A model generated the notes under the pieces. It did not search any database and was not told the DNA's origin. It saw only the letters and a program-made list of their open reading frames with translations. A DNA stretch of 64,000 nt, from the NCBI GenBank assembly GCA_965198115.1, contig OZ240241.1, positions 4,256,001 to 4,320,000 on the forward strand, given 5' to 3'. The stretch comes from Candidatus Latescibacterota bacterium (GTDB lineage Bacteria; Latescibacterota; UBA2968). This document shows, piece by piece, positions 21,779 through 42,448 of this stretch (the stretch's first letter is position 1; each line of letters opens with the position of its first letter). The translations under genes and the position numbers were made by a program.

Positions 21779-21797
21779 TCAAACAAGATGATGAAAG

Positions 21798-24700
21798 CTA
21801 CTTGAGCAGCATCATCTTTCGAACCGTGGTGAACGCGGACGTTTGAGTACCCACAGCCTGCATTCGTACGAAATACAGACCGCTGGCCACCTGTCGACCG
21901 TATTCGTCTCGACCGTCCCACGCCACACGGTGGCAACCGGCGGTGAGCCGATCGTCGACAAGATGGGAGACCTGCTGGCCCAGCACGTTGTAAATCGTCA
22001 GGCGAACATCGGCAGCCTCGGGCAACGCGAACGGAATCACCGTTTCCGGGTTGAACGGGTTCGGGTAATTCTGCGTCAGTGCGAACGCATCGGGCATCGC
22101 CTGAAGCTCCGCCGCGGAGTCACCCAGGCGACGGATGTTGCCGGCTGGATCAGACACGAACGCTTCTGCAATTTCGACCACACCCGTCACCGTCGGGTCG
22201 AGCACGTTGAACTGAAGCTCCACAATCGAACGATCCCCGACGATCCCCTCGGTCAGGACATCGGCCAGGGTGATCTTGCCCGACTGGCGAGCCTCGAGCG
22301 CTGGCCGCCCGTCTTCCGCGAACAAGGAAGTGCCGGCAGACAGCACATCGGAGAGTTCAAACGCCACGGCGTCGTATTTCAGCGTCAGTCCATAGCCCTG
22401 AACGACCTCGGCATCGGAGAGATCGACTGAGACCGTGATCATCTCGCCGTTGCGGGCGCTTTGAGCCACCAGACTGATCCCAGTCTCGGCATTCAAATGA
22501 GGCCCGAGACCCAGAGGTTTGGTCAACGCCCGTTTAGCCGGCCCACCAAACGCCCCGGCAAAGGTGATGAAGTCGGGGAACCCAATGTTGCCATCCCCGT
22601 CGAGGTCGAACTTCGAATCGAAGTTCGCTGCCCCTACAGAGGCCCCGAAGGCCTGAGCGAACTGGATGAAATCGCCGAACCCGACGATTCCGTCCCCGTC
22701 GAAGTCGGGTGTGGGTTCACCGCTGGCATCGCCACCGATCTGAATCGTGGCGCCACCGGCTCCGATCGTCAGACGCGTCTGATCGGCAGCCGAGGTGGCG
22801 AACTGACCACTGCTGAGCGTGATACGTGTCGGCAGCGTCGCACCATCCTTCACGGTGAATGTGACCGTGCCGATGCTTCCTGAGTCCGCGGTCGTCTTCG
22901 TTGTCCCCAGGAAGGCCACACTCCCGCGGAAGAGACCGTCCCCCTCCGTCGGAATCGGCAACGCACCCGAGAAGAGTCCGGACAGCGTGAAGGTGCCGAA
23001 CTCAAGGTTAGCCGACTCGAAAAGCAAAGTGAATTGATAGCCTGCCAACCCCGTGGCGCCTTCGGTGGCCACCAGATCAACCGTCACCGTGCCGTCATCC
23101 GGCACGTCCTCGAGGATGCGTTCCTCCCGATCCCCGTCGGCCGAATCGAGATCGAGCGCCATCGGACCGATCGTGCCTTCCCCGATGGCTGCCGCAGCCC
23201 TACCCACGACCGTTGCGGTCACCTCACGGGCACCCGATACATGCGGTAACAACCACGTCACCTTCAGCCTGAATCGTGAGGGAGGCGGTCGCCATACCAG
23301 ATGCACTCGGAACCGTTGCGCTCGATCCGCCGTCGACCTGTGCGTCCCCTGAAGTGACCGAGAACGTAATGTCCAACCCGTCGTCGGTCAGTGCGAGACC
23401 GTCCAGGTCGAACAACGCCGCCGTCAATGTCGCCGACTCACTCCCGTCCGAGGCGAGCGAATCAGAGCTCGACGTCAGCGTAATCTGACGCTCGAGACCT
23501 TCGACATTCACCGTTCCACGCGTGAACGTCTCGAGTTCCTCAACACCACCTTCACCGTTCGAGAACTGAACCTTGGTTACGGTCACATCGGTCATGCCGC
23601 TGAACCGGTCGTTCACGAGGAAAGACAGGACGGCCAGCAACCCATCACCCTGCCCCAACTGGCTGTCGGAAGCGCCCAGGAGCACTGTGGAGAAGCTGAT
23701 GGCGTCTCCCTGGGGGATCGAGAGGCTGACGGCGACACCCCCGCTCTGCTTCAGAATGTTGGTCTCGAGCGTGCCGTCCTCTGCGATTCCGTCGAGCGTC
23801 ACGGCTGTCGAGTCGTAGTCCACCTGGATCTCGTAGCCCAGCAGATCCACGACGCCCTTGGCGTAAACCGCGATTTCGAACGACTCACCCGGCGGGACCG
23901 TGGTTTCCGTCACGCCACCGTCGCCTGCCGCCGTATCGAAATCGACCGAGACAGCGTCATCCGCCACCAGGTCGACTTCCGTTGTCACGAGCGGAAGCGG
24001 CACGGTAAAGTCCTCCACGACCGTAGCCCCACCCGCTTCGACGGCGATTGGGTCCGGAGCTCCGTCACCGTTTGGATCGTAGGCGCCGGAGGTCGGTCCT
24101 GCCGATGTCTCGACCTGGGCGAACAAACCGTATGTACCTTCGCTCAGACCTTCAACTTGGTAACCGCCCTGCTCGTCGACAACGCTCCCGCCTGCGATCT
24201 CACCTTCTTCGTTGACCGCGATGACCTCGCCGAACAGAATCTCGACCGGATCTGCTTGTTTCGAAGCCGCTTCTACGAGCAACAGACTGCCCTCGATGCT
24301 ACCAAAAGACTCGAGCTGACCGCCCGTCGCAAACGTGAGTGTCAACGACTCGGGCAGGGGCTGTCCATTCTTTCCGTGCGCACCACGGAGCGTGAATGTG
24401 TAGGACGTGTTCGGCGCCAGCTCGACAGGAATCACGGCGGTCGTTCCATCGTCATCGAGGAAAACGTCGAGTGGACGTCCCTCGCCGGGAACCAGGAACG
24501 CCTCGACGTTGACGAAACGTCCTGCCTGACGGACCGGTGCGGAGAACGTAATGCGTATCTCGCCGCTCTCGGGCACGTCGACCGCGCCGTTTTCGGGTTC
24601 GGTGCTTACCACGCGGAATGCAGATCCTATCGCCCGGATCGTGAAGTCAGCCTTCGCGAAAAGACCGAGTGACGGCACTTCGATTTCGACCTCGTGAAGA

Positions 24701-27700
24701 CCCGGACCCAGGTTGCGGGCGACCGCGCCGGATCGGACAACCACCGGAGGCAGGAAATCGAGGAACACGACGATCTCGGTGTCGAGTACGTTCCCATCGA
24801 TATCGACCACGTTGAGAACCGCATCATTCTCATCGCCTTCACCGTCAAAATCTCCGGTGTCAACTTCAACGAAGACTTCCGCCAGATCTCTGAACGTCTC
24901 CGCGTAGAAGACGAGCGGCGCATCACCGATGATTTCGCCTTCCATGAAGATGTTTTGACCCGGAAGGGAAGCGAGACTCACCGGGTTCTCATTCTCGTCG
25001 ATGACCTCGATTCCGTCGCCCAGCGTGAACGGCGGAAGTGCCGTGAACACCAGGAGGAACCCGTCGTCCGTTTCCTCGATTTGAACCTGGAAGCGATCGA
25101 AGATCTCTTCCTCGGGATGAAGGGGACGCGGAAACGCCGGATTCAGCAACGTCAGCCTGACGACACCGGGCCTGAACGGGTTGAATTCGACGACGATCTG
25201 CGCTTCCTCGCTGGATTCCAGAAGATCCCTGAACTGTTCAGGGGGAATGCCCCGGCCACCAAAGTCGCCGAAGAATGTACGGTCCGTGATCGGCTCGGGC
25301 AGACGTGCCGCGAGTACAATCGTCCGCTAGCCTCATCCACGCTCTCCACGAGGCCATCGATCTCAAAAGGTTCGCCGCCGATGATCGACACGAACTCGGC
25401 CACGCGCTCACCCTCGGGTGCGCCCGGGAAGACCGTTTCCGTTCCCTCCACGGCCACCAGAACACCGTGTCTCAACTCGTGGAGACCCGCTGGGGACTCA
25501 TCGGGGAAAGTGATCACTGTGTTGCGCGTGATCCTGGCTGGTGCAGGTGGACTCGGTGAAATGACATTTTCGAAGTCACGCAACTGACCGAACAGGTCAT
25601 CAACCCGAATGAGAAGATCCTCATCGAGTTGAATCGGGTCCACGCCGAGTGGTAGCACCTCGATGCCCACGGCCAGCTGCCGGTTAGGATCGGGAATGTC
25701 TTCGGTGAAGATCCGAAGGAAACGTGGCTCGAACTGGAACGTCTGCTCCGAGAGAAGCGCATCACGCAGTTCTCTCAACGACCCCACGACGTTGCCGTCG
25801 GGCAGCATGATCTCCGTACCTGGCGGCACGAACAGCTCGATCGACGGTTGGAAGAACAGGAAGCCACCGAACTGATCGAAGAACTCCACGCGCGCTGCGA
25901 TCTCGAACGTGCGCTGACGTGCACCACCGTTCAGAATTAGAACGAAGCTCGCTGTGATCCTGCCCGAATCGTTCTCCTCTCCGAACACGGCGACCTGAAC
26001 GCCGAGGCCGATGTCAGCGAATTCTCGTAATTCGTCCAGAGGCACGCCTGGAATCGGGCTGGGCGGCGGGAAGAACGGATCGGGGAACTGCTTGGCCCTC
26101 GTCACCTTGGCAGCCGGTTTGGTTGCCTTGCTGTTCGTGAGCGGCTGGGCACGCTTGAACGCGGACCCTCTGGCCCCCCGAAGAAGGGATCGAAGAAATC
26201 GTCCTGGAAAGGATTGAAAAAGACGACACCGACGACCGTATCATCTGTGATCGCAACTTCGACCGGTACTTCGTCGTCACCTTCCACAAAGATCAATCGA
26301 TTATCGGCATCGACATCGACCACGGCGCCGATGATTTGGGGCTCTTCCTGTTCCGGGCCGCGGAAAATCATGACACGATCGGCATCAATGCTGCCATCGT
26401 CGCGGAACAGGCCGAAGATGTCGACGTCATCTCCTTCGACCAGGTCGTCGAACGTACCCTGCACGATCTCCGGCTCCTGGAAAATTGGAACAAGGCCGAA
26501 CAGAATCTCGAAATCGAAGAAGTCGACGATCCCGTCGCCGTTGGCATCGTGCGCTTCGGGGCTGTTGAACCAAGCGTCGAAGTCGGCATCATCGAAGATC
26601 CCGTCTCCATTGAAATCACCCGGTTCACCGAACTGCGCCCGCTTGGCTGCGACCTTTCGGCGCGCCTCCTTCAGGGCGTCTCGCTGGAAAAATGGTTCTT
26701 GGAAAATCTGGATCTCGAAGACCGTCGCGTCAGAGACGTGAACTGTCGTCCGGAATCCGAAGTCGTCGATGACGAAGGAGCCGACCGCACGATCGATCTC
26801 AATCACCCGACCGAAAGCAACCGGGAAACCACCAAACCCACCGCCACCTGCGTCGAAATCGCGCAGGATCTTCACACCGGTGGCAAAGATCGTACCGTCA
26901 CTCTCCACCTCGCCGAACACTTCGACGAAATCTCCTTCGATCAGGTCCTCGTAGACGGCGAATCCTTCGAACGGGTCACCACCACCGGCGAATGGATCGC
27001 CGAATGGGTCGCCACCGAAGAACGGGTCATCGAACTGGCCCTGCTGGGTCTGCCCGAACGTACCGAATCCATCTTCGGGCGGAGGTGGACCCCCGACGCG
27101 AATGAAGAATTCAGTCTCATCCGTGACCTGGACGGTGTGAACCACGCCCGTCTCATCCTGGACATCGAACGTCCCGGCATCTCGATCGATCGTGACAACC
27201 TCGCCTTCTACGGCAAGTTCGCCGAGATCTCCTGGACCACCGGGTCCTGGCTGGAGGATGCGGTCCAACCCATCGAACGTGATGAACCCGTCTGGACCGA
27301 CCTGGTTCCGGAAGAGTTGCTTCAGATCTTCTGGGAGCTGGAACAGGAGAAGTTCGTCAAGCGGTACTCCGAACCCGCCGGAGTCATCGATGGCTCTCCG
27401 GATGGACTCGATGATCTCGAACACGATTCCCTCGAATTCGGGCGGAATCCCCGGCGGGAATCCATCGGGCGGAGGGCCACCGCCGAGGGCGATGCGAACC
27501 TCGTCCAGATTAATCTCACCGTCATCACCGGCGATGTCCTCGAGAATGCCTCGAAGATCGTCCGTCAGGAAGCCGAACCACGAAATCGCCGGCGTCGGCG
27601 GCGGAGCACCCGGCTCCAGCAGCGTCGCCTCGATGTCGAACAGTACGTCGATCAACTTCTGCGGGAGATCGCCGAAGGGTGGCGGTGGAGAGCCACCGCC

Positions 27701-29995
27701 GAGGGCGATGCGAACCTCGTCCAGATTAATCTCACCGTCATCACCGGCGATGTCCTCGAGGATGCCTCGAAGATCGTCCGTCAGGAAGCCGAACCACGAA
27801 ATCGCCGGCGTCGGCGGCGGAGCACCCGGCTCCAGCAGCGTCGCCTCGATGTCGAACAGTACGTCGATCAACTCCTGCGGGAGATCGCCGAAGGGTGGCG
27901 GTGGAGGGCCACCGCCGAGGGCGATGCGAACCTCGTCCAGATTGATCTCACCGTCGTCACCCGCGATGTCCTCGAGGATGCCCCGAAGATCGTCAGTCAA
28001 GAAACCGAACCAAGCAATTGCAGGCGTCGTCGGTCCCGCCCCCGACTCCAACAGTGTCGCTTCGATATCGAACAGCACGTCCAGCAACTCTTGCGGTAGA
28101 TCGCCGAAGGGGGGCGGTGGGGACCCACCACCGAGGGCGATGCGGACCTCTTCCAAGTCGATCTCACCGTCATCACCGGCGATGTCCTCGAGAATGCCTC
28201 GAAGATCGTCAGTCAGGAAACCGAACCAAGCGCTCGCGGGCGACGTTGGCGGCGCACCGTCCTCCAGCAGCGTCGCCTCGATGTCGAACAAAACGTCCAG
28301 CAGTTCCTGAGGAAGGTCGCCAAAGGGAGGCGGAGGCTGGCCGCCGAAGAGGGCGGCACGGACTTCGTCCAGGTTGATCTCACCGTCATCGCCAGCGATG
28401 TCCTCGAGCAGAGCGCGAAGATCGTCGGTCAGAAAGCCGAACCACGAAACAGCCGGCGTCGTCGGTGGTGCGCCAGGTTCCTCCAGGGTCGCGAGAATGT
28501 CGTGCAACACACTGACCAGTTCATCCGGGAAATCACCCGGAGGCGGCGGACCGAAGTCGAAGATGCCGTCGAGAGCCCGGAAGACATCGTCGAGTACAAA
28601 CTGCCCGTTTGAGCCGCCGAGCAGTTCCAGAAGCTCGATGTCCCGATCATCGCTCAGACGTGAACGGAATTCCTCGATCGAAAGCAGGAATCCGGGAGGC
28701 TCACCTTCGAGCCGAACTCTCATTTCCTCAAGAAGGTCTCTTAAAACCTGGCTGAGAATGACCGGCTCGTCCGGTCCTCCGAATCCGGGTTCCAGCTGCT
28801 CAAAGAACTCGATGATGTCCGCGCTCAGGCCACCACCTTCGTGCTCGACCACAAACACGTTGACCGGCGTGTCGAGCTGAACGTCACCGAAGGAAGCCGG
28901 TTCGAACGCCGGTGGTGGGATCGGCTCGGTGGGATCGACAGGCGGTGGCTCCGTTCCAGGAAGAATGCGCCGATACTCGGTCTCTGGAACGGTGCCGATT
29001 AGTTGGACGGTCCCATCTTCCTGAGTAACCTCGAACTCGCCCGTCGCGGGATCGACAAACGTGATGACACCAAACACCCAGAACCCTTGTCCATCGGGGC
29101 CAGGCGGGGGCTGGCTGAAGAAGATGTCGAAGTCATCCCTATCGATATCCCCGTCGCCATCGAGGTCCGACGCTTCAGGTTCGGCCACCCAGAAAGCGAC
29201 ATCGGCATCATCCAGGATGCCGTTGCCATCAAAATCGCCGAAGATGAACTCGGGAGGTTGTCCCCCTGGAATGAATCCAGGCGGCGGATTGGCCGGATCG
29301 AACTGGGTATTGAAGACAGGGACCCCGTAGAATAGATCGAAGTCTTCGACGCCTACCTCCCCATTGCCATCGAGGTCACCGGCTTCCGGAAGTCCCGCCC
29401 AGGCAAAGAAGTCCGAGAAGTCCACCAGTCCATTGAAGTCGAAATCGGGGCCAATTCCTGACGGAGGAGGCTGGTTGGGATCCGTTGGGTCGCTAGGGGG
29501 CGGCTGGTTGGGGTCGGTGCCGAAGAAGGAGTCCCCGAAGAAGAGATCGAAATCGAGTGTATCGATCACGCCGTCACCGTTCAGATCCCCAGCCTCAGGC
29601 AGTGACGCCCAGAGGATGAAATCCCCGAAATCGACGGCTCCAGTCCCATCGTAGTCAGGCCCTGGAAGCGGAGGTGGCTGATTCGGATCGGTCGGATCAC
29701 CCGGAGGGGGCGGCGGAGGCTGGTTCGGATCGACCGTCGTGCCAAAAACGGGTCCGCCGAAGAAGAGGTCGAAGTCCTCGACGCCTACCTGCCCGTTACC
29801 GTCCAGGTCACCCGCCTCAGGCAGCGACGCCCAAATTAGGAAGTCGCCAAACCCCACCACGCCGTCCCCATCATAATCGGGCCCTGCAGGTGGCGGATCC
29901 TGAGCAAGAGCAGGTGAGAGCGAGATCAAGGTTACGCCCACCACGGCTGTCAGCGCGACTGCGGCGCCCCGGTAATTTTGAAACCACCGCAACAT
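21798..29995 (-). CDS. Giant (~2700 aa) secreted acidic protein: EF-hand/dockerin-like pairs, DUF5666-like OB domains, 72-aa repeats, Ig-like and cohesin-like domains, FlgD/T9SS-A-like C-terminus; frameshifts near 26165, 25322, 23243
   Basis: Signal peptide MLRWF...SPALA|Q with RBS GGAGG. Four same-strand ORFs join by single indels. C-terminus QNYPNPFNPET...WDGRDEYGRQVASGLYF...KMMLLK. Confidence 0.82.
27470..28550 (-). repeat. Five tandem 216-bp (72-aa) coding repeats
   Basis: GAGGGCG anchor at 27485, 27701, 27917, 28133, 28349; unit PPPPFGDLPQELLDVLFDIEATLLE...WFGFLTDDLRGILEDIAGDDGEINLDEVRIALGGG. Confidence 0.95.
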
Positions 29996-30048
29996 AGCTA
30001 CCCTCCGATGAGAAATGACGATGCGACTTCGTAACAGATAGACCCTTA

Positions 30049-31310
30049 GTACTCCTGTTCGCAAATACGGTGACGTATTCTAAGCAGACTTTGCCAAGGG
30101 CGTATCGTAGAACCTGAGTTTGTCGATCATCTCCGCGAGATCTGTTCGTGTGAACTTCCATTTGAAGGGTGTGGCGATACGTCCGTAGCGTTCCTGAAAA
30201 CCGAGGATTCTTGCCTCAAGCTCTTCGAGCGATGCAAATTCGATAGGTGTCAGAGCCTTGCGTTTGAGGATCGAGAAGTAGATCTCGATCTGATTGAGCC
30301 AGCTTGCGTGGATCGGAAGGTGAACGGGGTGGATGTTTGGCCACTTCCCCTGGATACGGTCGATGCATGTTTGCCCTCGGTGCGAGGAGCCATTATCCAC
30401 GATGAGGTAGACTTTCTTTGCCGAGCAATAGGGTTTCCGGCTCATGATCAGGCTCAGGAGCCGGTTGAAGGGCTCGATACCCGAAGAAGACTCACAGAGA
30501 CCGAAGATTCGACCATTGTGCACGTCGAGAGCAGCCAGATAGGCCAGGGCTCCTTTCCGCTCGTATTCGTGTTTCAACGCGTGCCGCTCTGTTCGAGGCT
30601 GGCGGTAGGGTAACGTGCTTGCGAGCTCGTGCTTGAATACTGGTCTTTTCGTCGGCAGAAAGTACATATTCCCTCGGCCCTAAAGGCTTTCCTTGCCATT
30701 GGCGGTGATACAGATCAAGGACTCTACCTGCTTTGGTTTGGAAGTCCGGGTCCCGTGGGAAAATCCAGGAGCGATGATACCAAGGACGAATCGCGTCCTC
30801 GTTCAACCAGCGCCAGACAGTGGCGCCGCTGATCTTGGCAACGAAGCCCCTTTGCACTGCCTCGGCGGCAATCTCGGAACAGCTGAACCGCGAGAGCGGT
30901 ATCCCGCTCTCGCTCGGTAGTTCACACGCCAGCGCCTTGATCTGAACGACCACCTGAGGGGGGAAAACCGGGCGGGCGCCCGGGACGAGATCTATCTTCG
31001 AGTCCCGAAAGACGCTCTTCGAAAAAGCGCTTACGCCATTTGCTTACGATCGGACGCGGGACATCCAACCGTTGGGCGATAATCTTGTTGGATAATCCCT
31101 CGGCGGCGAGAAGCACGATTTTCGATCGGATCACTTGATAATACGGTAACGTATATTGTCCAGCCATTCGCTCGAGGTCGACCCGTTCCTTCTCAGACAG
31201 TAGCACCACATAAGGCGAACGTCTTGGCATTGTTCTCCTCCTTTTGAAGGAGAACATAAGCTACAAATAATGTTCAGAACATACGTAATAATGTTTATGA
31301 AACCATGCAC
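30049..31310 (-). mobile_element. IS630 family insertion sequence
   Basis: TA flanks at 30047-30048 and 31311-31312; imperfect IRs TAGTAC...ACGTAT / TAGTGC...ACGTAT; encloses the transposase. Confidence 0.85.
30080..31230 (-). CDS. IS630 transposase in three frames (HTH ORF plus DDE ORF, with a second frameshift near 30590)
   Basis: KWRKRF...RPGRP HTH; SADEKT, IVDNGSSH, ASWLNQIEIYF catalytic motifs; TTTTCCCCCC run at the first junction. Confidence 0.88.
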
Positions 31311-31314
31311 TAAG

Positions 31315-31344
31315 AAGCCCCCATCAAAATTAGATGGGGGCTTT
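31315..31344 (-). terminator. Intrinsic terminator after the SCO gene
   Basis: AAGCCCCCATC-AAAATTA-GATGGGGGCTT. Confidence 0.75.
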
Positions 31345-31422
31345 CGACTTTCAGATAAAGTATCCCGAATTTTCCTTCGTGCCTTGGTGCCGGAGCCAGC
31401 CCCGAGTATAGTCGAGGGTGGT

Positions 31423-32037
31423 TTATGCTCCTTCTGCAAGCACCTTCTGAATCAGTCCTGCAATGATGGTCGCGCTGTCACCCGGCTGCGAGAGATAGCG
31501 TAGATCCCCATCCGGATCGATCAGATAGACGAGCGTCGTATGGTCGACCAGATAGCCGGCCTCGGTTTCTTCTTCCGAACGTTTGTAATAGACGCCGTAA
31601 CCTCCTGCGGCGACCCGGTTCACTTCCTCCGGCGTACCCGTCAAGCCGATGACCGGCATCTGCCAGTATTCCAGGTAAGCCTTGATCCGATCGGGCGTAT
31701 CGCGCTCCGGATCCACGCTTACCCACACGACCTGCAGCTGCTCCCTAGCTTCCCCCAGCAGGTCATACACTTGGGAGAGCTTTGAAAGCGTCGTCGGACA
31801 CGCATCCGGGCAGGTCGTGAACCCAAAGAACAGAAGGACCACGCGGCCTCGCAGCGCCCGAGAATCGAACGACGCGCCGTGCTGGTCCGTGAGGAAGAAA
31901 TCATCGCCGAAATCCAGCTTCTTCAGTTCAGGAAGCTCGACCTCCTCTGCCACATCCTGTGACGGCACTCTCTCTTGAGTCTGCTTGCAAGCAACTGTGC
32001 CCGCAACCAAAAGGAAAAAATAGACGAGCGCCCTCAA
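31423..32037 (-). CDS. SCO1/SenC family copper chaperone, lipoprotein
   Basis: FGFTTCPDACP (CxxxC), SVDPERD, VDHT; lipobox VAC. Confidence 0.93.
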   Translation of the reverse strand: MRALVYFFLLVAGTVACKQTQERVPSQDVAEEVELPELKKLDFGDDFFLTDQHGASFDSRALRGRVVLLFFGFTTCPDACPTTLSKLSQVYDLLGEAREQLQVVWVSVDPERDTPDRIKAYLEYWQMPVIGLTGTPEEVNRVAAGGYGVYYKRSEEETEAGYLVDHTTLVYLIDPDGDLRYLSQPGDSATIIAGLIQKVLAEGA

Positions 32038-32438
32038 CGCTTCTCCACCCTTGCCGCAAACGTCACCGATGATCCCTCCGATGTTCGAAGTGTGAGAGGC
32101 ACGTCGTTTCCTTCGCTAATAGTATAGGTCGGATTGATCAGCATCAGATGCTTTCCGCCCGGGCTCAGGCTCGTCGTCTCACCGGGCTCCAGAACTAGCG
32201 TCCTCAGTCGTCGCATTCTCATCACGCCCTGCCCATCCGTCGTCATCTCGTGGATTTCGACAGCCTCGAAAGCCGGCGACGAAGCCCCTGTGACCCGAAC
32301 TGTATCGCCCGTCCGATTCGTCACATCGAAGTAGGCAGCGGTCACGCTTTGCGTCGGCAGGATGGGTCGCACCCATCCACTCCCCACCTCGAGCCCAGCC
32401 GATTCCTCCCCACAAGCCCACACGGAAAGCAAAAGCAA
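32034..32438 (-). CDS. Copper chaperone PCu(A)C
   Basis: EIHEM...MRM...PGGKHLML motif. Confidence 0.9.
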   Translation of the reverse strand: MLLLSVWACGEESAGLEVGSGWVRPILPTQSVTAAYFDVTNRTGDTVRVTGASSPAFEAVEIHEMTTDGQGVMRMRRLRTLVLEPGETTSLSPGGKHLMLINPTYTISEGNDVPLTLRTSEGSSVTFAARVEKR

Positions 32439-32534
32439 AAAAGTCCACCGTGGACGTCTAACGACTGCCGCGTTGTCCGACGCGCGACGATCCTGTGAGT
32501 CAGGAATCTTCTGTGTGCTCTGTGTACTCAGTGG

Positions 32535-32888
32535 CTAATCTTCCCCCTGTAGCGAAACCACGTACGCCGCGATCTTCTCACGATCTGCCGGCGATATGTG
32601 CGGATACCCCGGCATCTTTCCCCCGTCCATTCTCGTGCCCATCTCGATCGTCTTCGCCATGTCGGCAATGTCTCGACCCTGCTTGTATCCACTGAGATCC
32701 CGAAAATCGCGCGGGCGCGGCCGAAAGTTCTCCGCCATAGGCCCGTCCCCGCGGCCATCACGGCCGTGACAGAGTACACACCCATTGGACGCGTAGAGTT
32801 TTCTCCCCTCCACGACCGACGGAGTACTCTCATCGTCCCCGGAACAGGAGATGACCATAGCGAAGACAAACGAAACCAAGCATCTCAC
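32535..32888 (-). CDS. Monoheme c-type cytochrome, lipoprotein
   Basis: CVLCHG, GDGP, axial Met in KMPGY; lipobox ISC. Confidence 0.9.
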
Positions 32889-33238
32889 GCTCCCTGCAAC
32901 ATCCTTCCCAACCTGCGTCCCCCGAGGAGGTGCATATGAACGTGATAGACTTCCTGTCCTCCGTCGTTGCCGCAGTTGACGATAAGACGGTATCCACCTT
33001 CATCGATTCCTTCGTCACGTGCGATCTTTGCTGCCGTAGTGAATAAACGGCCCAACGCCACTTCGTCTTCTGTCTCCACGTCCCTCACCGTCGGAATCAC
33101 CTTGTTCGGAATGATCAGCACGTGCGTCGGCGCCTGGGGATTGATGTCCCTGAACGCCGTCACGAGGTCATCCTGATACACGATGTCCGCCGGTATCTCC
33201 TTGCGGACGATCTTGCTGAAAATCGTCTCTTCGGCCAT
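32885..33238 (-). CDS. hinT: HIT family purine nucleoside phosphoramidase
   Basis: [37 protein letters not shown]. Confidence 0.93.
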
Positions 33239-33338
33239 CTCAATCCCTCATCTCGAGTGCGCGGACTGGTCACGGACCTTTTCCGAATCCAGGGTCACCA
33301 CACGAAGACTTCGTCTTGCGGAAGCTCAACAGATCGAA

Positions 33339-33746
33339 TCATATGCCCGACGGGTCGACTCGACGAATGCCAGTGACCTCATCAAAGTCACGATCGGTGG
33401 TGACGATCGTATCCAGACCGTTGTTCTGCATCGTAGCGATGTGAATGGCATCGCGGGGGGAGAGCGAGGGGCTGTTCTTGTAGAGTGTCGCTGCAACCCT
33501 CAGATCTGGTCTCGTAACCGGGAGCAAGTTGGGGAACAGATCGATCAGATCGTGCGTGACCTCGGAGGCCAACTCTCGAGACCCTCGTCGGGAGAGCGCG
33601 AAAAGGACCTCCTGTATGACTTCCGTGTTCGTTTCTCCCTCGAGCCTTTCCTGCTCCAGCGCTCGCAGAACGGCTTGACACGGAGCCTTGAGTGCGTGTT
33701 CGCGACCGATCGCATACAGGAAGACGTTCGTGTCGATGAAGACCAT
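33339..33746 (-). CDS. vapC: VapC PIN-domain toxin
   Basis: FIDTNVF, QEV, RDAIHIA, TTDRDFD. Confidence 0.92.
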   Translation of the reverse strand: MVFIDTNVFLYAIGREHALKAPCQAVLRALEQERLEGETNTEVIQEVLFALSRRGSRELASEVTHDLIDLFPNLLPVTRPDLRVAATLYKNSPSLSPRDAIHIATMQNNGLDTIVTTDRDFDEVTGIRRVDPSGI

Positions 33747-33982
33747 CAGGAATGCCGATTCTCAATTTCGGTCTTCAGTTCCTCCCAGTCCGGCAAGGGG
33801 ATGGCGTGTTCTGTGAGGCGGTCGACAATTGCCTTTTTGTCGCTCGATCCGGTGCCGTATTTCTCACGGACGGCTTCGCGAACCAATTCCGCGACCGAGC
33901 ACCCTTTGTAGTGGGCGATGCTTTCCAGCCGCTCGTATTCGACCGGCTCCATCAAGATCTGAGCGCGCTTAGACCGTGCCAT
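33746..33982 (-). CDS. VapB-type antitoxin (ribbon-helix-helix/CopG)
   Basis: KRAQILM...SVAELVREAV; stop overlaps the vapC ATG. Confidence 0.82.
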   Translation of the reverse strand: MARSKRAQILMEPVEYERLESIAHYKGCSVAELVREAVREKYGTGSSDKKAIVDRLTEHAIPLPDWEELKTEIENRHS

Positions 33983-33998
33983 TGACAACCTCCTTTGA

Positions 33999-34037
33999 TA
34001 TACTTATCAGTATAAGTATACATATAGCCGACGTCAA
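33999..34037 (-). promoter_or_regulatory. vapBC sigma-70 promoter with palindromic operator
   Basis: Minus strand TTGACG-N17-TATACT; inverted repeat TATACTTAT-CAGT-ATAAGTATA (33999-34020) overlaps the -10 element. Confidence 0.8.
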
Positions 34038-34089
34038 GCCGTAATTGCGGGACTGCCAACGACCGCCTACGCCAAGCGGAGCCAGCTTC

Positions 34090-35580
34090 TTGAAATATGA
34101 CACCATCATCGTTGGAGCTGGAGCAGCGGGCTGCGTCCTCGCATCAAGGTTGTCACAAGACCCATCCAGATCCGTCCTCCTGATCGAAGCCGGACCGGAC
34201 TTCCCCGACACGGAATCCCTCCCCGATGACGTGCGTCTCGGCTACAGTACGTCGTCCGGCACGGTCGCTCGAGGCCACGACTGGGGCTATGTCGCCAAGG
34301 CCGCTTCCCGGACCGAACCTATCATCCGCGGGAAGCTCGTCGGGGGGTCGAGCGCCGTCAACGCGCAGATCTATCTATGGGGACTCCCCTACGACTTCGA
34401 TCGATGGGTCGACTTGGGGAACGATGCGTGGTCGTGGTCCGCCGTCGAACGCTGGTTCCAAAAGGTCGAAACCGATCTCGACTTCGTTGACGGTCACGGT
34501 CAGGACGGACCGATCCAGGTGCGAAGGTATCAGCGTGCAGAATGGCTCGACGCCCAGTCTGCGTTCTATGCGGCCTGCCGCGACGCGGGCTTCGCCGATT
34601 GTCCCGACCTGAACCAGCCATACGCCACGGGAGTCGGCCCTTTCCCGATGAACAATCCTGGAGGCATTCGCATCAGCGCCGCGATCGGTTACCTGAACCC
34701 CGTCCGTGGGCGACCCAACCTCACCGTTTTTGCGAACACGACTGCCCACCGGATCCGTTTCGACGACGCCAGGCCGGTTGGCATCGAGATTGGACACAAC
34801 GGCGAGGTCCAATCGATCGACGCCAACGAGGTCGTCGTCTCGTGCGGCGCCATCGGCACGCCTCTTCTGCTCCAGCGATCAGGCATAGGCGACGCGACCA
34901 ACCTGATGTCTCACGGGGTTGACTCGATCGTCAACTTGCCCGGTGTCGGACACAACCTCCGCGACCATCCCGCCGTTCCGATCTACTGGCAGGCCAACGG
35001 CACGGGCCCGACGGACACGCACTGGCACCAGGTCGGTCTGCGGTATACGGCAGAGGACTCCACTGACAAAGACGACATGATCGTCTACGTCGCTCATCTC
35101 CGCGATGAGCCGAAACTCCTGATGCGACCAACCGTCAACTTGGCTGAAAGCGCAGGCCGCCTCACCATCGCATCACCAGACCCACACGACGACCCGCACA
35201 TCGACTACGGAATGTTCGCTCACCCGCTTGATAGAAAACGAATGCGCGAGGCCATCCGTCTGTGCCGGGACCTGGTTCGTCACGACGCATTCTCCGCCCA
35301 CATCACCGCGTTGCTGCAACCATCCGATGCCGATCTCGCATCGGACGATGCGCTGGACGCCTGGATCCTCCACCACGCCACGACCGGCCACCACGTCAGT
35401 GGCACGTGCAAGATGGGCTCCGCGACGGACCCGCTCGCCGTCGTCGATCAACAGGGCCGCGTCCACGGGGTCGACAACCTTCGCGTCATCGACGCATCGA
35501 TTATGCCCGATTGTGTCCGCGCCAACATCCACGCCACCGTCCTGATGATGGCCGAACGCCTCGCCTCCACGTGGTCGTAG
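34090..35580 (+). CDS. GMC family FAD oxidoreductase (choline dehydrogenase/MftG-like)
   Basis: IVGAGAAG, RGKLVGGSSAVN, VGHNLRDHP, HVSGTCKMG, DASIMP. Confidence 0.92.
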   Translation: MKYDTIIVGAGAAGCVLASRLSQDPSRSVLLIEAGPDFPDTESLPDDVRLGYSTSSGTVARGHDWGYVAKAASRTEPIIRGKLVGGSSAVNAQIYLWGLPYDFDRWVDLGNDAWSWSAVERWFQKVETDLDFVDGHGQDGPIQVRRYQRAEWLDAQSAFYAACRDAGFADCPDLNQPYATGVGPFPMNNPGGIRISAAIGYLNPVRGRPNLTVFANTTAHRIRFDDARPVGIEIGHNGEVQSIDANEVVVSCGAIGTPLLLQRSGIGDATNLMSHGVDSIVNLPGVGHNLRDHPAVPIYWQANGTGPTDTHWHQVGLRYTAEDSTDKDDMIVYVAHLRDEPKLLMRPTVNLAESAGRLTIASPDPHDDPHIDYGMFAHPLDRKRMREAIRLCRDLVRHDAFSAHITALLQPSDADLASDDALDAWILHHATTGHHVSGTCKMGSATDPLAVVDQQGRVHGVDNLRVIDASIMPDCVRANIHATVLMMAERLASTWS

Positions 35581-35708
35581 GGGCGTATTGCCCAGTATCG
35601 AGGCCCGAACGATAAGACGCACAAGGCGAAGCCTGTTGGCGCGTTCGGGTTGACGTGACCTACCCAACATCCGTATATTCAGCGCAGGTTCTTTGACAGA
35701 CATCATTA

Positions 35709-35873
35709 GGATTCAGGTGACGGCTGAGTCGTCAGCCGTAAGAGGGAAGACGGTGCAAATCCGTCGCGGGCCCGCCGCTGTAACCGGGTTGGCTCACGTC
35801 GAACGTCACTGGCCGCAAGGCTGGGAAGACGCGTGAGTCGGTAAACCGGAAGCCAGAAGACCTGCCTGAATCC
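35709..35873 (+). ncRNA. Cobalamin (AdoCbl) riboswitch
   Basis: P1 GGATTCAGG/CCTGAATCC; AGGGAA-GGTGCAAATCC; GCCCGCCGCTGTAA; CACTG..GGGAAG; B12 box AGCCAGAAGACCTGCC. Preceded by TTGACG-N18-TATATT and followed by a terminator-like hairpin (35938-35973) over the TTG start. Confidence 0.96.
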
Positions 35874-35971
35874 GTCGCATTCGAACTTCCTCGAGGACAG
35901 GGAGCGAAGCCACCGGACAGGCGTTTACGCACGCGTGCCCCGCTTCCCTGAGGGAAGTCGGGGTTCTTTTT

Positions 35972-38164
35972 TTGCGCTTTACGTTCTCCATCGGTCTTTT
36001 GCTCGCGTCCTTCTGCGGTGTCGTCGATGCCACTACGCTCGACGGCATCGTAACCATCGTCGATTCCGGACAGCCTCTTGCGGGCGCAACGGTCCGGCTA
36101 GCCGGTACCGAACGTGCGGCGGAGACAGACGCGTTCGGTCGATTCCGCTTCAGCGATCTGCCCCAGGGCGACTACCGAATCGAAGTCCGCCACGTCGGCT
36201 ACCACACATCGTCGCTCGACGTCGCGATCGGAAGTGACTTCCTTCCGCTCTCCATCGCTCTCGTCCCTCAACCGATCCCCCTCGACGATCTCTCGGTCAC
36301 CGCTCACCCCGACCCGGACATCGCTCGACAGCCGGCTTTCTCGGTCATCATCCCGCGCGAAGCGTTCGAAGGTCGTGCAACGACCCTGCCCGAAGTCCTT
36401 TCCGCCACGACGGGAGTCCAGGTTCGATCGCTCGGGGGAATGGGCGCATTCAGCACGATCTCTGTCCGCGGCTCGTCTAGTGAACAGGTCGATGTCTACC
36501 TCGACGGGATCTCTCTCAACACTGCCCTTGGCGGAGGGATCGACCTCAGCAATCTGCCGCTGTCGCATATCGGCCGAATCGAAGTACGGCGTGGCGCCGG
36601 CCAGGACGGCCACGGACTTGGCGGGACCGTTCACATACGCACGAGAGCGATCGCCGATAAAACCCCGCCCGGGGTCTTTGCGTCGTGGGGCTCATTCGAC
36701 ACTCGATCGATCAGCGCCGTCTGGACGGCTCGATCGGGCCGTTGGCGCTCTCTCTTCGTAGTCGACTACGCTGCGAGCGACAATGACTTTCCCTTCCTGG
36801 ACGATAACGGCACGGAGTACAACGCCAACGACGATGCCGTCGTTCAACGGCGGAACAGCGATGTGTCCTCGGGTAGCGTGCTCGCAAAATCGCGTTTCCG
36901 GCTGACCGAAGCTCGCAGCCTGTCTCTTCATCAGACCCTGTTCTGGAAACGCCAGGGCATTCCAGGCCTCAGCAACAATCAGTCGACCGATGCCCGTTTC
37001 GACACATTCCGCAGCCTCACCGAGATCGTCTACGAAGACAGGGCATTCTTCGACCGCCTCTTCTCCCGACAGACGTTCTACTTCACACACACTGGTGAGT
37101 CTTTCGAAGACATCGTTGGGGAGGTCGGCGTGGGTCGGCAGAACAACGAAGACCGTACACGATCGATCGGCTGGCGCACCGAAACCCGCTGGCCGTTCCC
37201 CACCGGGCATCTGATCCGGCTGATCACCGATGTCGGCCGCGAGACGTTCGACCCTACCGCCCACATCCAGCTCATCACGCCACTGTTCGCCGCTCGGCGA
37301 ATGAGGTTTGCCGGAGGAACGAGCGCGGATCTCACCCTCCCGCGTGACATCGGCGTGTGGTCCTCGCGAGTAGACGCGCGACAACTTCGTAGCCGTCTCG
37401 AGGGTCGAAATCCATTCGCATTCTCACCACAGGCCCCCGACAGCAGTCAGACGCAAACGTCGATCAGCGCAAGCACGGGCATCCGCATCGACATTACGAG
37501 CACGCTCTCGTTCAGGGCCAACACCGGTCGTTCCGAGCGCGCTCCCAGCTTTTACGAGCTGTTCGGCGACCGGGGTGGCGTCGTCGGCAACACGAGAATC
37601 CGTCCAGAACGCGCCTACACGTGGGACACTGGATTTCGCTATGGCGGTCCCACGCTCGGGGCCGAGGCAGCCTACTTCGACCATCGCTACAACGACCTCA
37701 TCCAGTTCTTTCAGACATCGCAGGCCACCTCCCGGCCGCACAACATCGGGAAGGCGCGGGTCCGAGGATTGGAACTCAGCGGCTCCGTTACGACTGCGTC
37801 TTGGGCCGTCGGTTTCAACTACACCCTTCAGGACGCAAGCGACCGATCGAATAGTCCGAGCCGAACCGGGAAGACCCTGCCCAACCGGCCGCGGCACGCA
37901 TTGGCTTTCCATACGACCACGAAGTTCCACGGTGTCTCAACGCGGTATGACTACACCTTCCAGGGCGGGAACTTCCTCGACCCCGCCAACCGGCGTCCAC
38001 TCGATCCGCGACATCTTCACGGTGCAGTCGTTCACCTGGACGTGTCTCCGTCTGTTCGACTCGGGCTTGAGGCCAGGAATATCACGAACGCCCAGATCAA
38101 CGACGTTTGGGGCTATCCGCTGCCCGGACGCGCGTGGTTCGTCAACGTCCAAACAGTTCCGTAG
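35972..38164 (+). CDS. btuB: TonB-dependent cobalamin receptor (BtuB-like) with N-terminal carboxypeptidase-regulatory-like domain
   Basis: Plug SVRGSSSEQVDVYLDG; RAPSFYELF; YPLPGRAW; directly under the B12 riboswitch. Confidence 0.85.
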   Translation: MRFTFSIGLLLASFCGVVDATTLDGIVTIVDSGQPLAGATVRLAGTERAAETDAFGRFRFSDLPQGDYRIEVRHVGYHTSSLDVAIGSDFLPLSIALVPQPIPLDDLSVTAHPDPDIARQPAFSVIIPREAFEGRATTLPEVLSATTGVQVRSLGGMGAFSTISVRGSSSEQVDVYLDGISLNTALGGGIDLSNLPLSHIGRIEVRRGAGQDGHGLGGTVHIRTRAIADKTPPGVFASWGSFDTRSISAVWTARSGRWRSLFVVDYAASDNDFPFLDDNGTEYNANDDAVVQRRNSDVSSGSVLAKSRFRLTEARSLSLHQTLFWKRQGIPGLSNNQSTDARFDTFRSLTEIVYEDRAFFDRLFSRQTFYFTHTGESFEDIVGEVGVGRQNNEDRTRSIGWRTETRWPFPTGHLIRLITDVGRETFDPTAHIQLITPLFAARRMRFAGGTSADLTLPRDIGVWSSRVDARQLRSRLEGRNPFAFSPQAPDSSQTQTSISASTGIRIDITSTLSFRANTGRSERAPSFYELFGDRGGVVGNTRIRPERAYTWDTGFRYGGPTLGAEAAYFDHRYNDLIQFFQTSQATSRPHNIGKARVRGLELSGSVTTASWAVGFNYTLQDASDRSNSPSRTGKTLPNRPRHALAFHTTTKFHGVSTRYDYTFQGGNFLDPANRRPLDPRHLHGAVVHLDVSPSVRLGLEARNITNAQINDVWGYPLPGRAWFVNVQTVP

Positions 38165-38172
38165 GAGGAACT

Positions 38173-39441
38173 ATGTTTTGCTCTCTCGTTCGATCCCTGA
38201 TCACAACCGTGATGTTCGTTTCGGTCGCCCACGGGGAGCCGAGAACCATCGTGACGACGACCGACTTCACGACCGGAAGCCTCTCCTCGGTCGACGACGC
38301 GGGAACAGTCACGGACGACCTTCTCCTCATCCACAGTGACGCGCGTGTACGCGTGTTCGGAAACCGTGTCTACATCATCAACCGGCTCGGCCAGGACAAC
38401 ATCATCGTGCTCGACAAGGACGACCTCGCAATGCCCCTCACACAGTTCTCAACGGGCGACGGTAGCAACCCGCACGAAATGATCGTCGTCAGCGACGAGA
38501 AGGCCTACGTTTCGGTTTATGGGAAGGACTACCTGCTTGTCGTCAACCCGGCGACTGGAGACTCGTCGGATATCATCAGTCTCTCCTCCTTCTCGGACGC
38601 CGACGGTCTACCTGAAGCTTCCCAGCTCGCATTTTATGCAGGGCATCTCTTCGTCGCGTGTCAACGACTGGATCGGGATGCTCCTCTCTTCGCCCCTACT
38701 GAATTCAGCACGATCGCCGTCGTCGATGTTTCATCGGACGCGCTGGTGGACATGGATCCCACGAGCCCGGAGATGGATGGGATCCGCCTTACGGCTAGCC
38801 AGCCGTTTGGGGCGGCCCAGCGCGGCCCCTGGTGGGTTCTGGCCGAAGTTGGGACATTCGGTGCCAACGACGGTGGCATCGAAGTTGTGGATCTGATCAA
38901 CCGTGAAGTCAGTGGCATTCTCGTTTCTGAGGAGGCCCTGGGAAATGACGTCAACGCCATCGCGATGGTCAGCGACAGTGAAGGTTATGTCGTGCTGTCA
39001 AGTTCGATTCCCCCGTTTCCGAATTTTGTGCGGCGCTTCAACCTTGGCACGGGGGAAGTATCTGCTACCCTTGAAGGCGTCACTACTGGCTACATTTCGA
39101 CCTTGGTTTCCGCGCCAGGCCGACTCTACGTCGCGGACCGGAGTACCTTCGACGCTCCCGACGAAGCGGGGGTGAGGGTCTTCGATTCAGCAACCGAATC
39201 CCTCATCCAAGGACCACTCGCCACGTCGCTTCCACCCTTCGACATCGCCATTGTTGATGTGGTTCGGAGCGACTTCGACGGAAACGGAAACGTCGATTTT
39301 ACCGACTTCCTCACCTTCGCCACCGCGTTCGAAACATCGCACGGCGATGAAACGTTCTCCTCCAGCTCCGATCTGGACACGAACGGGACCGTCGACTTTG
39401 CTGACTTCCTGATCTTCGCTTCGGAATACGACGGGCCGTAA
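38173..39441 (+). CDS. BtuG/YncE-like beta-propeller with C-terminal paired EF-hand/dockerin-like module
   Basis: YIINRLGQDNI, GSNPHEM, KAYVS; tail DFDGNGNVDFTDF...DLDTNGTVDFADF; RBS AGGAGG. Confidence 0.75.
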   Translation: MFCSLVRSLITTVMFVSVAHGEPRTIVTTTDFTTGSLSSVDDAGTVTDDLLLIHSDARVRVFGNRVYIINRLGQDNIIVLDKDDLAMPLTQFSTGDGSNPHEMIVVSDEKAYVSVYGKDYLLVVNPATGDSSDIISLSSFSDADGLPEASQLAFYAGHLFVACQRLDRDAPLFAPTEFSTIAVVDVSSDALVDMDPTSPEMDGIRLTASQPFGAAQRGPWWVLAEVGTFGANDGGIEVVDLINREVSGILVSEEALGNDVNAIAMVSDSEGYVVLSSSIPPFPNFVRRFNLGTGEVSATLEGVTTGYISTLVSAPGRLYVADRSTFDAPDEAGVRVFDSATESLIQGPLATSLPPFDIAIVDVVRSDFDGNGNVDFTDFLTFATAFETSHGDETFSSSSDLDTNGTVDFADFLIFASEYDGP

Positions 39442-39448
39442 CGAATAG

Positions 39449-40039
39449 ATGTCTGACATCAAGGCCATACCACCCAGCGACCGCATCGATTCACATCATT
39501 GCCTGCACGTCTACTACGGCTATGGGAAAGGCAAGACGACAAGCTGTATGGGGCTGGCGCTCCGAGCGGCGGGTTCAGGTCACAGAGTCGCCATCGTTCA
39601 GTTCGACAAGGGGTACGATGGCGAAGTCGAGCACTACGCCGAGCGAAATGTGTTGCGCACCATCGAGGGCGTGGATCTGCATCCTACCGGAGCCGAACGA
39701 ATGCAGGGCGACGGCAGTTTTCGCTTCGGTGTAGAGTCGCGGGACATCGACGAAGCAAAGCGGGGTGTCGGGATCGCGCGTGAATTCCTCGAATCGGGCA
39801 ACCAGCACGTCCTCATCCTCGACGAAGTCCTGGCGGCCGTCGCCTACGACCTGCTCCCCGAATCAGAAGTGATGTCGCTCATCGACTTCTACGATGCCAA
39901 CCGAGGCTGCGAGCTCGTGATGTCCGGTCACAAAGTGTGGGAAAGCCTGATCGAGCGCGCCGACCTGGTAACAGAAATGCGCAAGGTCAAACACTACTAC
40001 GCCAAAGGCGTCCCCGCACGTCCCGGCATCGAATTTTAG
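39449..40039 (+). CDS. cobO: Cob(I)alamin adenosyltransferase (CobO/BtuR)
   Basis: YYGYGKGKTT, ILDE, ADLVTEMRKVKHYY..G...GIEF. Confidence 0.92.
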   Translation: MSDIKAIPPSDRIDSHHCLHVYYGYGKGKTTSCMGLALRAAGSGHRVAIVQFDKGYDGEVEHYAERNVLRTIEGVDLHPTGAERMQGDGSFRFGVESRDIDEAKRGVGIAREFLESGNQHVLILDEVLAAVAYDLLPESEVMSLIDFYDANRGCELVMSGHKVWESLIERADLVTEMRKVKHYYAKGVPARPGIEF

Positions 40040-40230: not shown

Positions 40231-41355
40231 ATGACCCCCAGATTGCTCGCTTACGTCGCAGCCCTGCTCATCCTCCTGGGCCCCACCCACGCCGCCGACC
40301 TCTTCCCCCACAAGGCAGAGATCCGACACGCGACCGGCTTCGAGGTCAGCTACCACGACACCTATAAGATCGTTCGCGTCCTCCGGCCCTGGAAGGGCGC
40401 GAGAGAGACGTTCACTTACGTGCTGGTCCAGGAAGGCACTCCGCGACCCGAGGGCTACGAGGATGCCCAGACAATCACGGTCCCCGTCCGTCGTTTTGTC
40501 GCCCTTTCGTCGACCTACTTGCCCCACGTGGAAAAAATAGATGCCATCGATCGCCTGATCGGACTTGGAAAGGCGTCTTTCGTCTACTCTCCGGCCATCC
40601 GCGCCGAAATTGCAAACGGAAGGATCGTCGAAACGGGGTCCGACGGGAGCCTAAACATCGAAACGCTCGTCTCGCTCTCCCCCGATCTCGTCATGTCCTA
40701 CGGGTCGGGGAACCCCGCCGGCGACGTGCACCCCAAGCTGATGGAAGTCGGCATACCTGCGGCTGTCAACGGTGAATTCATGGAACCCAGCCCCCTCGGT
40801 CGTGCCGAATGGCTGAAGTTCACAGCCCTCTTCTTCAACCTCGAAAAGAGGGCCGAAGTCGCCTTCAAAGAGGTCGAGACGGACTACCTTCGTCTCGCTA
40901 CCCTGACATCCGGCATCGATCATCGGCCGACGGTCTTCACAAACATCAGCTGGCACGGGGTCTGGCACGCATCAGGAGGACGGAGTTTCATGGCTCGGAT
41001 GCTCGATGACGCGGGGGCCGACTACATTTGGAAGGACGATCAGAGCGATCGGAGTATCCCTCTCGACTTCGAAGCCGTCCTCGACAGGGCCCTGCACGCT
41101 CGATACTGGATCAACACGGGTCAGTGGACGTCGCGTCAACAGGCGCTCGCAAACGACGAACGCTACGCCACGTTCGATGCGTTCAAAACAGGTCATATGT
41201 ACAACCACAACGCACGGGCGAATGACACGGGCGGCGACGACTACTGGGAATCGGGTGTCGCGAATCCCCACCTCGTGCTCGCCGACCTGATCAAGATTTT
41301 TCACCCCCATCTGCTGCCCGATCACACGCTGCACTACTATCGGCGGTTGCCCTGA
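40231..41355 (+). CDS. ABC transporter substrate-binding protein (cobalamin/Fe-siderophore family)
   Basis: EPSPLGRAEWLKF, DYWESGVANPHLVLADL. Confidence 0.88.
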   Translation: MTPRLLAYVAALLILLGPTHAADLFPHKAEIRHATGFEVSYHDTYKIVRVLRPWKGARETFTYVLVQEGTPRPEGYEDAQTITVPVRRFVALSSTYLPHVEKIDAIDRLIGLGKASFVYSPAIRAEIANGRIVETGSDGSLNIETLVSLSPDLVMSYGSGNPAGDVHPKLMEVGIPAAVNGEFMEPSPLGRAEWLKFTALFFNLEKRAEVAFKEVETDYLRLATLTSGIDHRPTVFTNISWHGVWHASGGRSFMARMLDDAGADYIWKDDQSDRSIPLDFEAVLDRALHARYWINTGQWTSRQQALANDERYATFDAFKTGHMYNHNARANDTGGDDYWESGVANPHLVLADLIKIFHPHLLPDHTLHYYRRLP

Positions 41356-42446: not shown

Positions 42447-42448
42447 CC

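Follow-up and report, generated by a model that had tools for sequence, protein, structure and literature searches.

The btu Operon and the BtuG-like Propeller

The DNA analysed here is a 64-kb window of contig OZ240241.1 from the Candidatus Latescibacterota assembly GCA_965198115.1 (genome G000). It contains a cobalamin uptake (btu) operon, in which a BtuG-like beta-propeller ends in a dockerin, and a giant scaffold-like gene with cohesin domains. An earlier note on this stretch had proposed that the propeller is held on the cell surface by docking onto the giant protein, in a cellulosome-like assembly used for vitamin scavenging. The main comparison genome was G001, which belongs to the same genus as G000. 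Other relatives are labelled G002-G036 and so on, and the presence of the giant gene and of btuG was scored in 40 of them.

The operon lies on the plus strand in the order riboswitch-btuB-btuG-cobO-btuFCD. It begins with a cobalamin riboswitch (RF00174, 35698..35883), which scored 121.3 bits against a cut-off of 31.5, and continues with a BtuB-like TonB-dependent receptor (35972..38164), for which the best family was TIGR01779, below the equivalog cut-off. The BtuG-like gene (38173..39441) is followed by a CobO/BtuR corrinoid adenosyltransferase (39449..40039) and by BtuF-, BtuC- and BtuD-like ABC importer genes together with a second binding protein (40231..44406), all assigned by profile. 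The model of the propeller had a pLDDT of 86, and its top fold match was the BtuG structure 8OKV (E 5e-16, TM 0.77 by target). All 14 rows listed for ranks 1-15 of the fold search were BtuG-family chains; identity to Bacteroides BtuG was 13-16%. A btuB-like gene adjoined btuG in each of the seven relatives' loci that were inspected. From its modelled fold, the BtuG-like propeller is a predicted B12 catcher.

The protein has an ordinary signal peptide and no type IX secretion system (T9SS) type A-like C-terminal domain (CTD), and a lipobox was found neither on it nor on the 21 dockerin-bearing orthologues viewed. It thus agrees with the earlier description of a BtuG-like protein without lipobox or sorting tail. 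The btuG gene was present in 37 of the 40 relatives and carried a dockerin in 35 of these 37. In G002, two BtuG propellers share one 867-aa open frame with a single terminal dockerin (G002:C5:4793-7126), and homologue P0122 is a 739-aa double-propeller lipoprotein. The btu operons of two relatives hold a CTD-tailed protein with two repeats (L054:4806-6407 and L055:3712-5367), which by eye we take to be Cache-sensor-like.

The Dockerin Module and Its Distribution

The BtuG-like protein (39256..39438, plus strand) and the giant gene (22536..22721, minus strand) both carry the paired DxDGDGxVxFxDF module. It had been noticed earlier, as DFDGDG.V.F.DF, and was found in both proteins. In the case of BtuG, both Ca-loop motifs are complete. 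A profile of 48 tails from G000 gave type II dockerins as the top PDB matches (2Y3N_B, 8.5e-13; 4WI0, 6e-12; 4U3S, 7e-12; 5K39), and the best EF-hand protein came behind them at 3e-7. A stand-alone EF-hand or calmodulin-like tail was rejected on this ranking. With Pfam Dockerin_1, the BtuG tail scored 21.7 bits, just below the cut-off of 22.9, and several paralogues passed it. The module consists of two tandem loop-helix repeats with D or N at positions 1, 3, 5, 9 and 12; the D at position 12 is invariant in 48/48 rows, and the models show two helices. Each repeat also has four nearly invariant Phe residues, at positions 10, 13, 16 and 20. By profile and model, the tail is a type II-like dockerin and a predicted Ca-dependent cohesin binder.

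The dockerin was counted on 61 open reading frames (ORFs) of G000: 44 C-terminal, seven in one frame with a CTD, six near the N-terminus, of which five stand directly after the signal peptide, and four in other positions. The clients include peptidases (S8, M10, M28), NHL, Kelch, LRR, FG-GAP and Ig proteins, and propellers. The shared module is therefore a real dockerin but is not special to the giant and BtuG, and the census suggested in the earlier note speaks against an exclusive link between the two. The BtuG dockerin was 46% identical to that of the giant, which placed it at rank 14 of 47 (median 42%). The G000 dockerins appear to form one specificity class. No glycoside hydrolase or CBM3 was detected among 88 ORFs scanned at E 1e-4. 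A cellulosome was rejected because there was neither a dockerin-bearing glycoside hydrolase nor a CBM3 scaffoldin among them; in its manner of working the system would nevertheless resemble the type II anchoring of cellulosomes.

The phylum survey covered 140 genomes, including the dockerin-rich families f1-f3 and a sister family, f4. The number of dockerins per genome ranged from 27 to at least 45 in f1-f3 and from 0 to 31 (median 5) in f4, counts that are biased because the profile was built from G000.

Exchange of Dockerin, CTD and Lipobox

Among the best 120 of 222 BtuG homologues, 88 had a dockerin, 25 a CTD, five only a lipobox, and two none of these (one of them a fragment). Dockerin and CTD never occurred together in this set. 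A lipobox call on P0003, counted among the 88, is probably a false positive, as a signal-peptidase I site follows it. The five lipobox-only proteins have nothing after the propeller, and the BtuG proteins of G004 and G022 likewise have a lipobox without a dockerin. In G004, a half-dockerin remnant (L052:7950-8700) lies after the lipoprotein BtuG, just before cobO, as a trace of recent dockerin loss. The more distant homologues were sorted by simple rules: of the best 150 distant representatives, 121 cover the whole propeller, and these comprise 47 with a lipobox only, 42 with a CTD only, one with a dockerin, one with lipobox and CTD, and 30 with neither.

The survey of the phylum gave a similar picture. 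The BtuG match ran through a dockerin in 47 of 50 f1-f3 relatives versus none of 72 elsewhere; two of the three exceptions were lipoprotein forms and the third was cut by a contig end. Judging from frame length and the proteins viewed, we infer that most of the 72 end in a CTD. In a quick tree of 75 thinned propellers, with the fragment and near-duplicates left out, a branch with SH-aLRT 98 separated the CTD forms from the rest, and the lipoprotein forms were nested inside the dockerin clade as one small clade. The dockerin thus behaves as the tether of BtuG, because it alternates with lipobox or CTD across the homologues.

The exchange extends beyond BtuG. Six other dockerin-tailed proteins of G000 were used as queries against five f4 genomes, and four had homologues there; the M28 peptidase L114 and L074 gave no match in these five genomes. 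The homologues of the four proteins ended in a CTD at 18 of 19 loci, one of the 18 with a dockerin too, and one locus could not be called. Because of these swaps, five unrelated families have the dockerin where a surface-sorting signal would otherwise stand. This CTD-to-dockerin swap at the level of orthologues is the strongest new evidence of the present comparison of sequences; the kind of system that it points to has already been proposed.

Cohesin Domains

Three cohesins were located in the giant gene, all on the minus strand: cohesin 1 (23482..23955), of class A3 and with a 'DLD..GDQG' start, at 34.9 bits with Pfam PF00963; cohesin 2 (22713..23165), also of class A3; and cohesin 3 (22086..22502), of class A4, the class that precedes a CTD. 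The latter two were assigned by Pfam, profile and fold. Both C-terminal ORFs of the giant exceeded the Pfam Cohesin cut-off of 24.1, with 47.2 and 34.9 bits. The three cohesin-like segments reported earlier were thus recovered in place, with the beta-sandwich of solved cohesins. The model of the last ORF (pLDDT 81) had 3L8Q and 2W1N as best fold matches, and 2VO8 matched with a TM of 0.72 by target. In this Foldseek search with a four-domain model, long Ig-repeat proteins with low whole-model TM dominate below the cohesin matches, and the reading is limited to 2VO8 and the top ranks.

Iterative genome searches sorted the cohesins of G000 into classes A3 and A4, which are homologous (HHalign 97%). 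By profile, the best PDB match of A3 was the type II cohesin dyad 3L8Q (E 3.6e-8), and that of A4 the Clostridium perfringens NagJ cohesin 2OZN (E 3e-9). Both classes were present in 41/41 genomes, and A4 cohesins nearly always precede a CTD. Together with the profile ranking of the tail, which is not a stand-alone EF-hand, these matches answer the suggested profile scans in favour of cohesins and dockerins.

A Small Cohesin-CTD Protein as Candidate Adaptor, and the T9SS

The search with class A4 led to a 255-aa protein that consists of a signal peptide, a cohesin and a CTD only (G000:C1:1278184-1279050, L119:1501-2364, minus strand), here called the adaptor. Within the order, 48 of 49 relatives had a match to it at E<1e-60 (one partial); of 90 genomes outside the order, none did. 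The best of the outside matches (9e-47) came from f3, and those listed for f4 belong to frames of about 1,500 aa. The adaptor is 50-60% identical across the order and usually stands directly after a cobA-hemD gene. In the adaptor-led alignment, 36 of 38 members match Pfam Cohesin. This small conserved protein, encoded elsewhere in G000, is a better candidate partner for BtuG than the giant. ESM Atlas look-alikes of the adaptor from Fidelibacterota, Eisenbacteria and Bacteroidota serve as leads at most.

No dockerin gene was found within 1.5 kb of the primary adaptor copy in 30/30 loci. Extra copies of the adaptor had a dockerin-only ORF within 4 kb in 18 of 20 cases, versus 2 of 20 fixed-position controls in the same genomes; the copies examined were the first 20 of 24 listed for six f2 genomes, and some of them are orthologous. 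A complex prediction for the adaptor cohesin, the BtuG dockerin and two Ca2+ ions scored 0.31 (mark 0.32), with no controls folded, and counts neither for nor against binding.

Export and anchoring of proteins through a CTD by the T9SS are established for Bacteroidota. G000 encodes SprA (SprA_N) and PorV above cut-off, a PorU-like C25 protein and a PorZ-like protein, and both the giant gene and the adaptor combine a signal peptide with a CTD, as T9SS type A substrates do. The PorU-like gene (peptidase C25, a 1,991-aa frame) adjoins the PorZ-like gene at L088:2434-14694 (G000 ~4.358-4.371 Mb), and both proteins retain a CTD, though most surface proteins of G000 carry dockerins. At another locus (L171:4053-14177, G000 ~5.586-5.596 Mb), genes for an FG-GAP protein, a PD40 protein and the dockerin-tailed L099 come after porV on its strand; the f4 homologues of L099 end in a CTD. 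Type II secretion system (T2SS) pseudopilins G and K were not detected in G000. Its single secretin gene (L169:2687-5221) has no pilin-like neighbours by Pfam, and near it lies a B12-dependent class II ribonucleotide reductase (L169:13672-17154), a use for imported B12.

The Giant Scaffold-like Gene

The earlier note had treated the giant as one protein. In the window, the gene (21798..29995, minus strand) is spread over four ORFs: 26102-30064 (ATG at 29995), 25152-26105, 23224-25149 and 21798-23306. Compared with the orthologue of G001, one intact frame of 2,296+ aa that runs off the contig end, there are three frame changes, near 26180-26210, 25326 and 23240, and the frame of cohesin 1 differs from that of the piece that bears the tail. 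The G036 copy is intact too. Each of the 18 other window genes compared aligns to G001 in a single frame. Contigs from two runs of one sample showed no gaps and no differing letters over 21500-27500. This agreement speaks against an assembly error behind the frameshifts, though the run contigs may be source data of the assembly and thus not independent of it. The giant gene is best read, from its sequence, as a pseudogene in this strain. No RNA data set was listed as containing it, a negative that carries no information on its expression.

The N-terminal ORF starts with a signal peptide at 29995. It is followed by four short paired EF-hand-like repeats (29119..29878), none of which occurs in the sequenced part of the G001 orthologue, and by a 216-bp tandem repeat of 4.6 copies that encodes acidic helical repeats (27471..28465). 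At the other end stands a T9SS type A-like CTD (21801..22067), in keeping with the T9SS-A-like tail suggested before: FlgD_ig scored 38.6 (cut-off 27) and TIGR04183 24.1 (cut-off 23), and Por_Secre_tail, at 23.6, remained below its cut-off of 27.

An IS630-family element (30045..31315, minus strand) ends 50 bp upstream of the giant's ATG, at the synteny break, so that the junction between the giant and the btu genes coincides with it. There are 66 full-length copies of this element in G000, 99.3-100% identical. At 8.4 Mb, G000 is much larger than a same-genus relative (5.6 Mb), and many of its dockerin ORFs are cut by frameshifts; it looks like a genome with a recent insertion sequence expansion and gene decay.

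The giant and btuG are about 8 kb apart on opposite strands, and the giant is not downstream of the cobalamin riboswitch. Its middle ORF had matches in 7 of 40 relatives. In G001, the giant stands with its downstream neighbours at the end of contig C28, and the SCO-btu cluster lies 193 kb into contig C59, beside other DNA. The two are 1.49 Mb apart in G036 and on different contigs in G009, so the adjacency was absent in all three relatives that could be checked. The giant came to lie near the B12 genes by accidental rearrangement, and this closeness has little importance. An intact giant, as in G001, would count among several larger scaffolds that are anchored by a CTD and belong to the same general system.

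Other window genes are conserved in G001 as well. A copper-chaperone cluster of HIT, cytochrome c, PCu(A)C and SCO1/SenC genes (31423-33238, minus strand) stays with btu there, and a fusion of an aldo-keto reductase with a chlorite dismutase-like domain (46017-47870) is also present in that genome.

Comparison with Known Systems

Dockerin and cohesin genes, or cellulosome elements, were reportedly described in Latescibacteria by Farag in 2017. PMC7081726 echoes the cellulosome elements of Farag 2017 at second hand. The closest precedent is 'Ca. Stygibacter' (Cloacimonadota), for which a cellulosome-like complex was proposed from genomes (Williams et al. 2021, PMC8542988). As in the present case, that diderm has proteins with a signal peptide and a C-terminal dockerin, among them S8 and other peptidases, and a CTD-ended cohesin scaffold for surface attachment, described there by genome inference only. 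It differs in having one 3,755-aa scaffoldin with CBMs and few enzymes, whereas G000 has about 60 clients, no detected glycoside hydrolase or CBM3, and a minimal single-cohesin adaptor with a CTD. The replacement of CTD by dockerin at the orthologue level, and BtuG among the clients, are also particular to the present system. A non-cellulosomal cohesin-dockerin system has been proposed for Chlorobium as well (bioRxiv 10.64898/2026.03.19.712371). Our literature search, which excluded subscription papers and supplements, found nothing that pairs BtuG with a dockerin or Latescibacter with both dockerin and cohesin.

Single-cohesin anchoring proteins of the SdbA type serve the cellulosomes of clostridia, and the adaptor resembles them in design. 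Clostridial type II anchoring modules (PDB 2Y3N, 4U3S/4WI0, 5K39, 2B59) also gave the tail and class A3 their best matches in sequence and fold. Unlike those systems, the anchor here is a T9SS-type CTD, not SLH or a sortase, the dockerin is rich in Phe at the four positions given above, and the cargo is non-cellulolytic. The host, unlike that of clostridial cellulosomes, is a diderm, and the cargo must therefore cross an outer membrane.

The NagJ cohesin of C. perfringens (PDB 2OZN, 2W1N), to which class A4 is closest, is likewise non-cellulosomal, but has no T9SS tail. The 'planctosome' of freshwater Planctomycetes (PMC6461901) is another non-cellulosomal use of cohesin and dockerin; a lamin-tail anchor is proposed there, and the consulted part of that paper describes neither a T9SS tail nor a swap of secretion signals. 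With Bacteroides BtuG (PDB 8OKV, 8BAI, 8P97; PMC6143338, PMC10404256), the window protein shares its fold, a btuB-like neighbour and a cobalamin riboswitch. It differs in its low identity, in lacking a lipobox, in its C-terminal dockerin and in its occurrence outside Bacteroidota, and its B12 binding is only predicted.

Discussion

The best reading of these results is a genome-wide cohesin-dockerin surface display in which BtuG is one client, with piggy-back export through the T9SS as its possible complement. The dockerin probably holds BtuG at the surface through a cohesin on a T9SS-tailed partner, which would most likely be the small adaptor and not the broken giant. Cargo and adaptor would both cross into the periplasm by Sec, where Ca2+ would fold the dockerin and allow it to bind the adaptor cohesin. 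SprA and PorV would then handle the CTD of the adaptor, and the PorU-like sortase would anchor it, the cargo possibly being carried out along with it. At the surface, tethered BtuG would capture cobalamin and, like its Bacteroides counterpart, deliver it to the BtuB-like receptor. Co-export with the adaptor is the simplest route across the outer membrane because the clients have lost their own CTD. The export step by itself is a tentative proposal.

The partner need not be the adaptor, and the docking proposed in the earlier note gave the neighbouring giant the part of a dedicated scaffold, on which BtuG would be displayed to scavenge the vitamin. What stands of that proposal is the identity of the domains and a dockerin that alternates with lipobox and CTD as a tether would; what finds no support is the special partner. 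The giant does have real cohesins, a CTD and a dockerin of the same class, lies near btuG, and has intact copies in G001 and G036; given one dockerin specificity class, an intact copy could bind BtuG among other clients. Nevertheless, in the window it has three frameshifts and an IS630 element at its leader, it occurs in seven of 40 relatives as against 35 with a dockerin-tailed BtuG, and it is unlinked from btu in all three relatives checked, besides being encoded on the other strand and not following the riboswitch. A dedicated giant-BtuG pair is largely refuted, and we consider it very improbable. The Phe-rich tail might instead act without any cohesin, as an independent signal for export or anchoring that is read by the T9SS or binds membrane or LPS by an aromatic face, the cohesins being spacers before the CTD. 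Its replacement of a C-terminal CTD in five families, the C-terminal position of 44 of 61 copies, the nearly invariant Phe residues and the habitual place of A4 cohesins before a CTD would all suit such a signal. The six copies that lie close to the N-terminus, five directly behind the signal peptide, are incompatible with a terminal signal and disfavour this explanation. It also leaves aside the conservation of a signal-cohesin-CTD-only protein at 50-60% identity across the order, the dockerin genes that adjoin the extra adaptor copies, and the cohesin binding of the closest solved relatives, and we regard it as unlikely.

A different possibility concerns when and where the pairs form. Cohesin and dockerin could meet after separate export, or keep the cargo periplasmic, with BtuB as the main holder of BtuG and the dockerin as an accessory cross-link within a mesh at the surface or in the periplasm. 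The secretin gene, the several proteins with both cohesin and dockerin that could polymerise, and the stability of BtuG-BtuB complexes on their own in Bacteroides (PMC10404256) are in line with it. However, T2SS pseudopilin G or K was not found, and a dockerin that was gained where the CTD was lost, and lost where a lipobox was gained, fits an essential tether better. This arrangement therefore also seems rather improbable.

Display through the adaptor has several points against it. The support for it is all comparative, and the BtuG tail counts are non-independent because the tree needs few events (one change between CTD and dockerin). One homologue, P0039, lacks all three anchors. A large interface also joins BtuG to BtuB in Bacteroides (PMC10404256), and for that reason a second tether may be dispensable. 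Two profiles found about 18 cohesin-bearing ORFs in G000 versus 61 dockerins, and five cargo proteins have a cohesin beside their own dockerin, a possible internal pair. Pfam Cohesin does not recognise the adaptor of G000 at E 0.01, f4 genomes have dockerins without a close adaptor, and the co-location of extra adaptor copies with dockerin genes could come partly from islands of surface proteins and from the orthology of some copies. The T9SS search covered SprA, PorV, PorU and PorZ, and the secretin gene may provide another export route.

Non-cellulosomal cohesins and dockerins are common in genomes of uncultured diderms, mostly without an assigned job, and the natural experiment described here gives them one. 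BtuG has a lipid, a T9SS tail or a dockerin, and almost never two of them, and four more families show the swap from tail to dockerin. The 150-aa cohesin and the 61-aa dockerin make a small, expressible candidate pair. BtuG-type B12 capture, as predicted here, is extended beyond Bacteroidota and joined to a non-lipid tether. More broadly, one order of Latescibacterota may have rewired its T9SS, in that dozens of surface proteins swapped their export tail for a dockerin and are bound in the periplasm by a single small cohesin-CTD adaptor, which exports and anchors them; this possibility is put forward with considerable reserve. If piggy-back export is true, a heterologous host could display any dockerin-tagged cargo through one adaptor, and the cohesin-dockerin pair would be a general secretion adaptor, beyond its role as an assembly clip.

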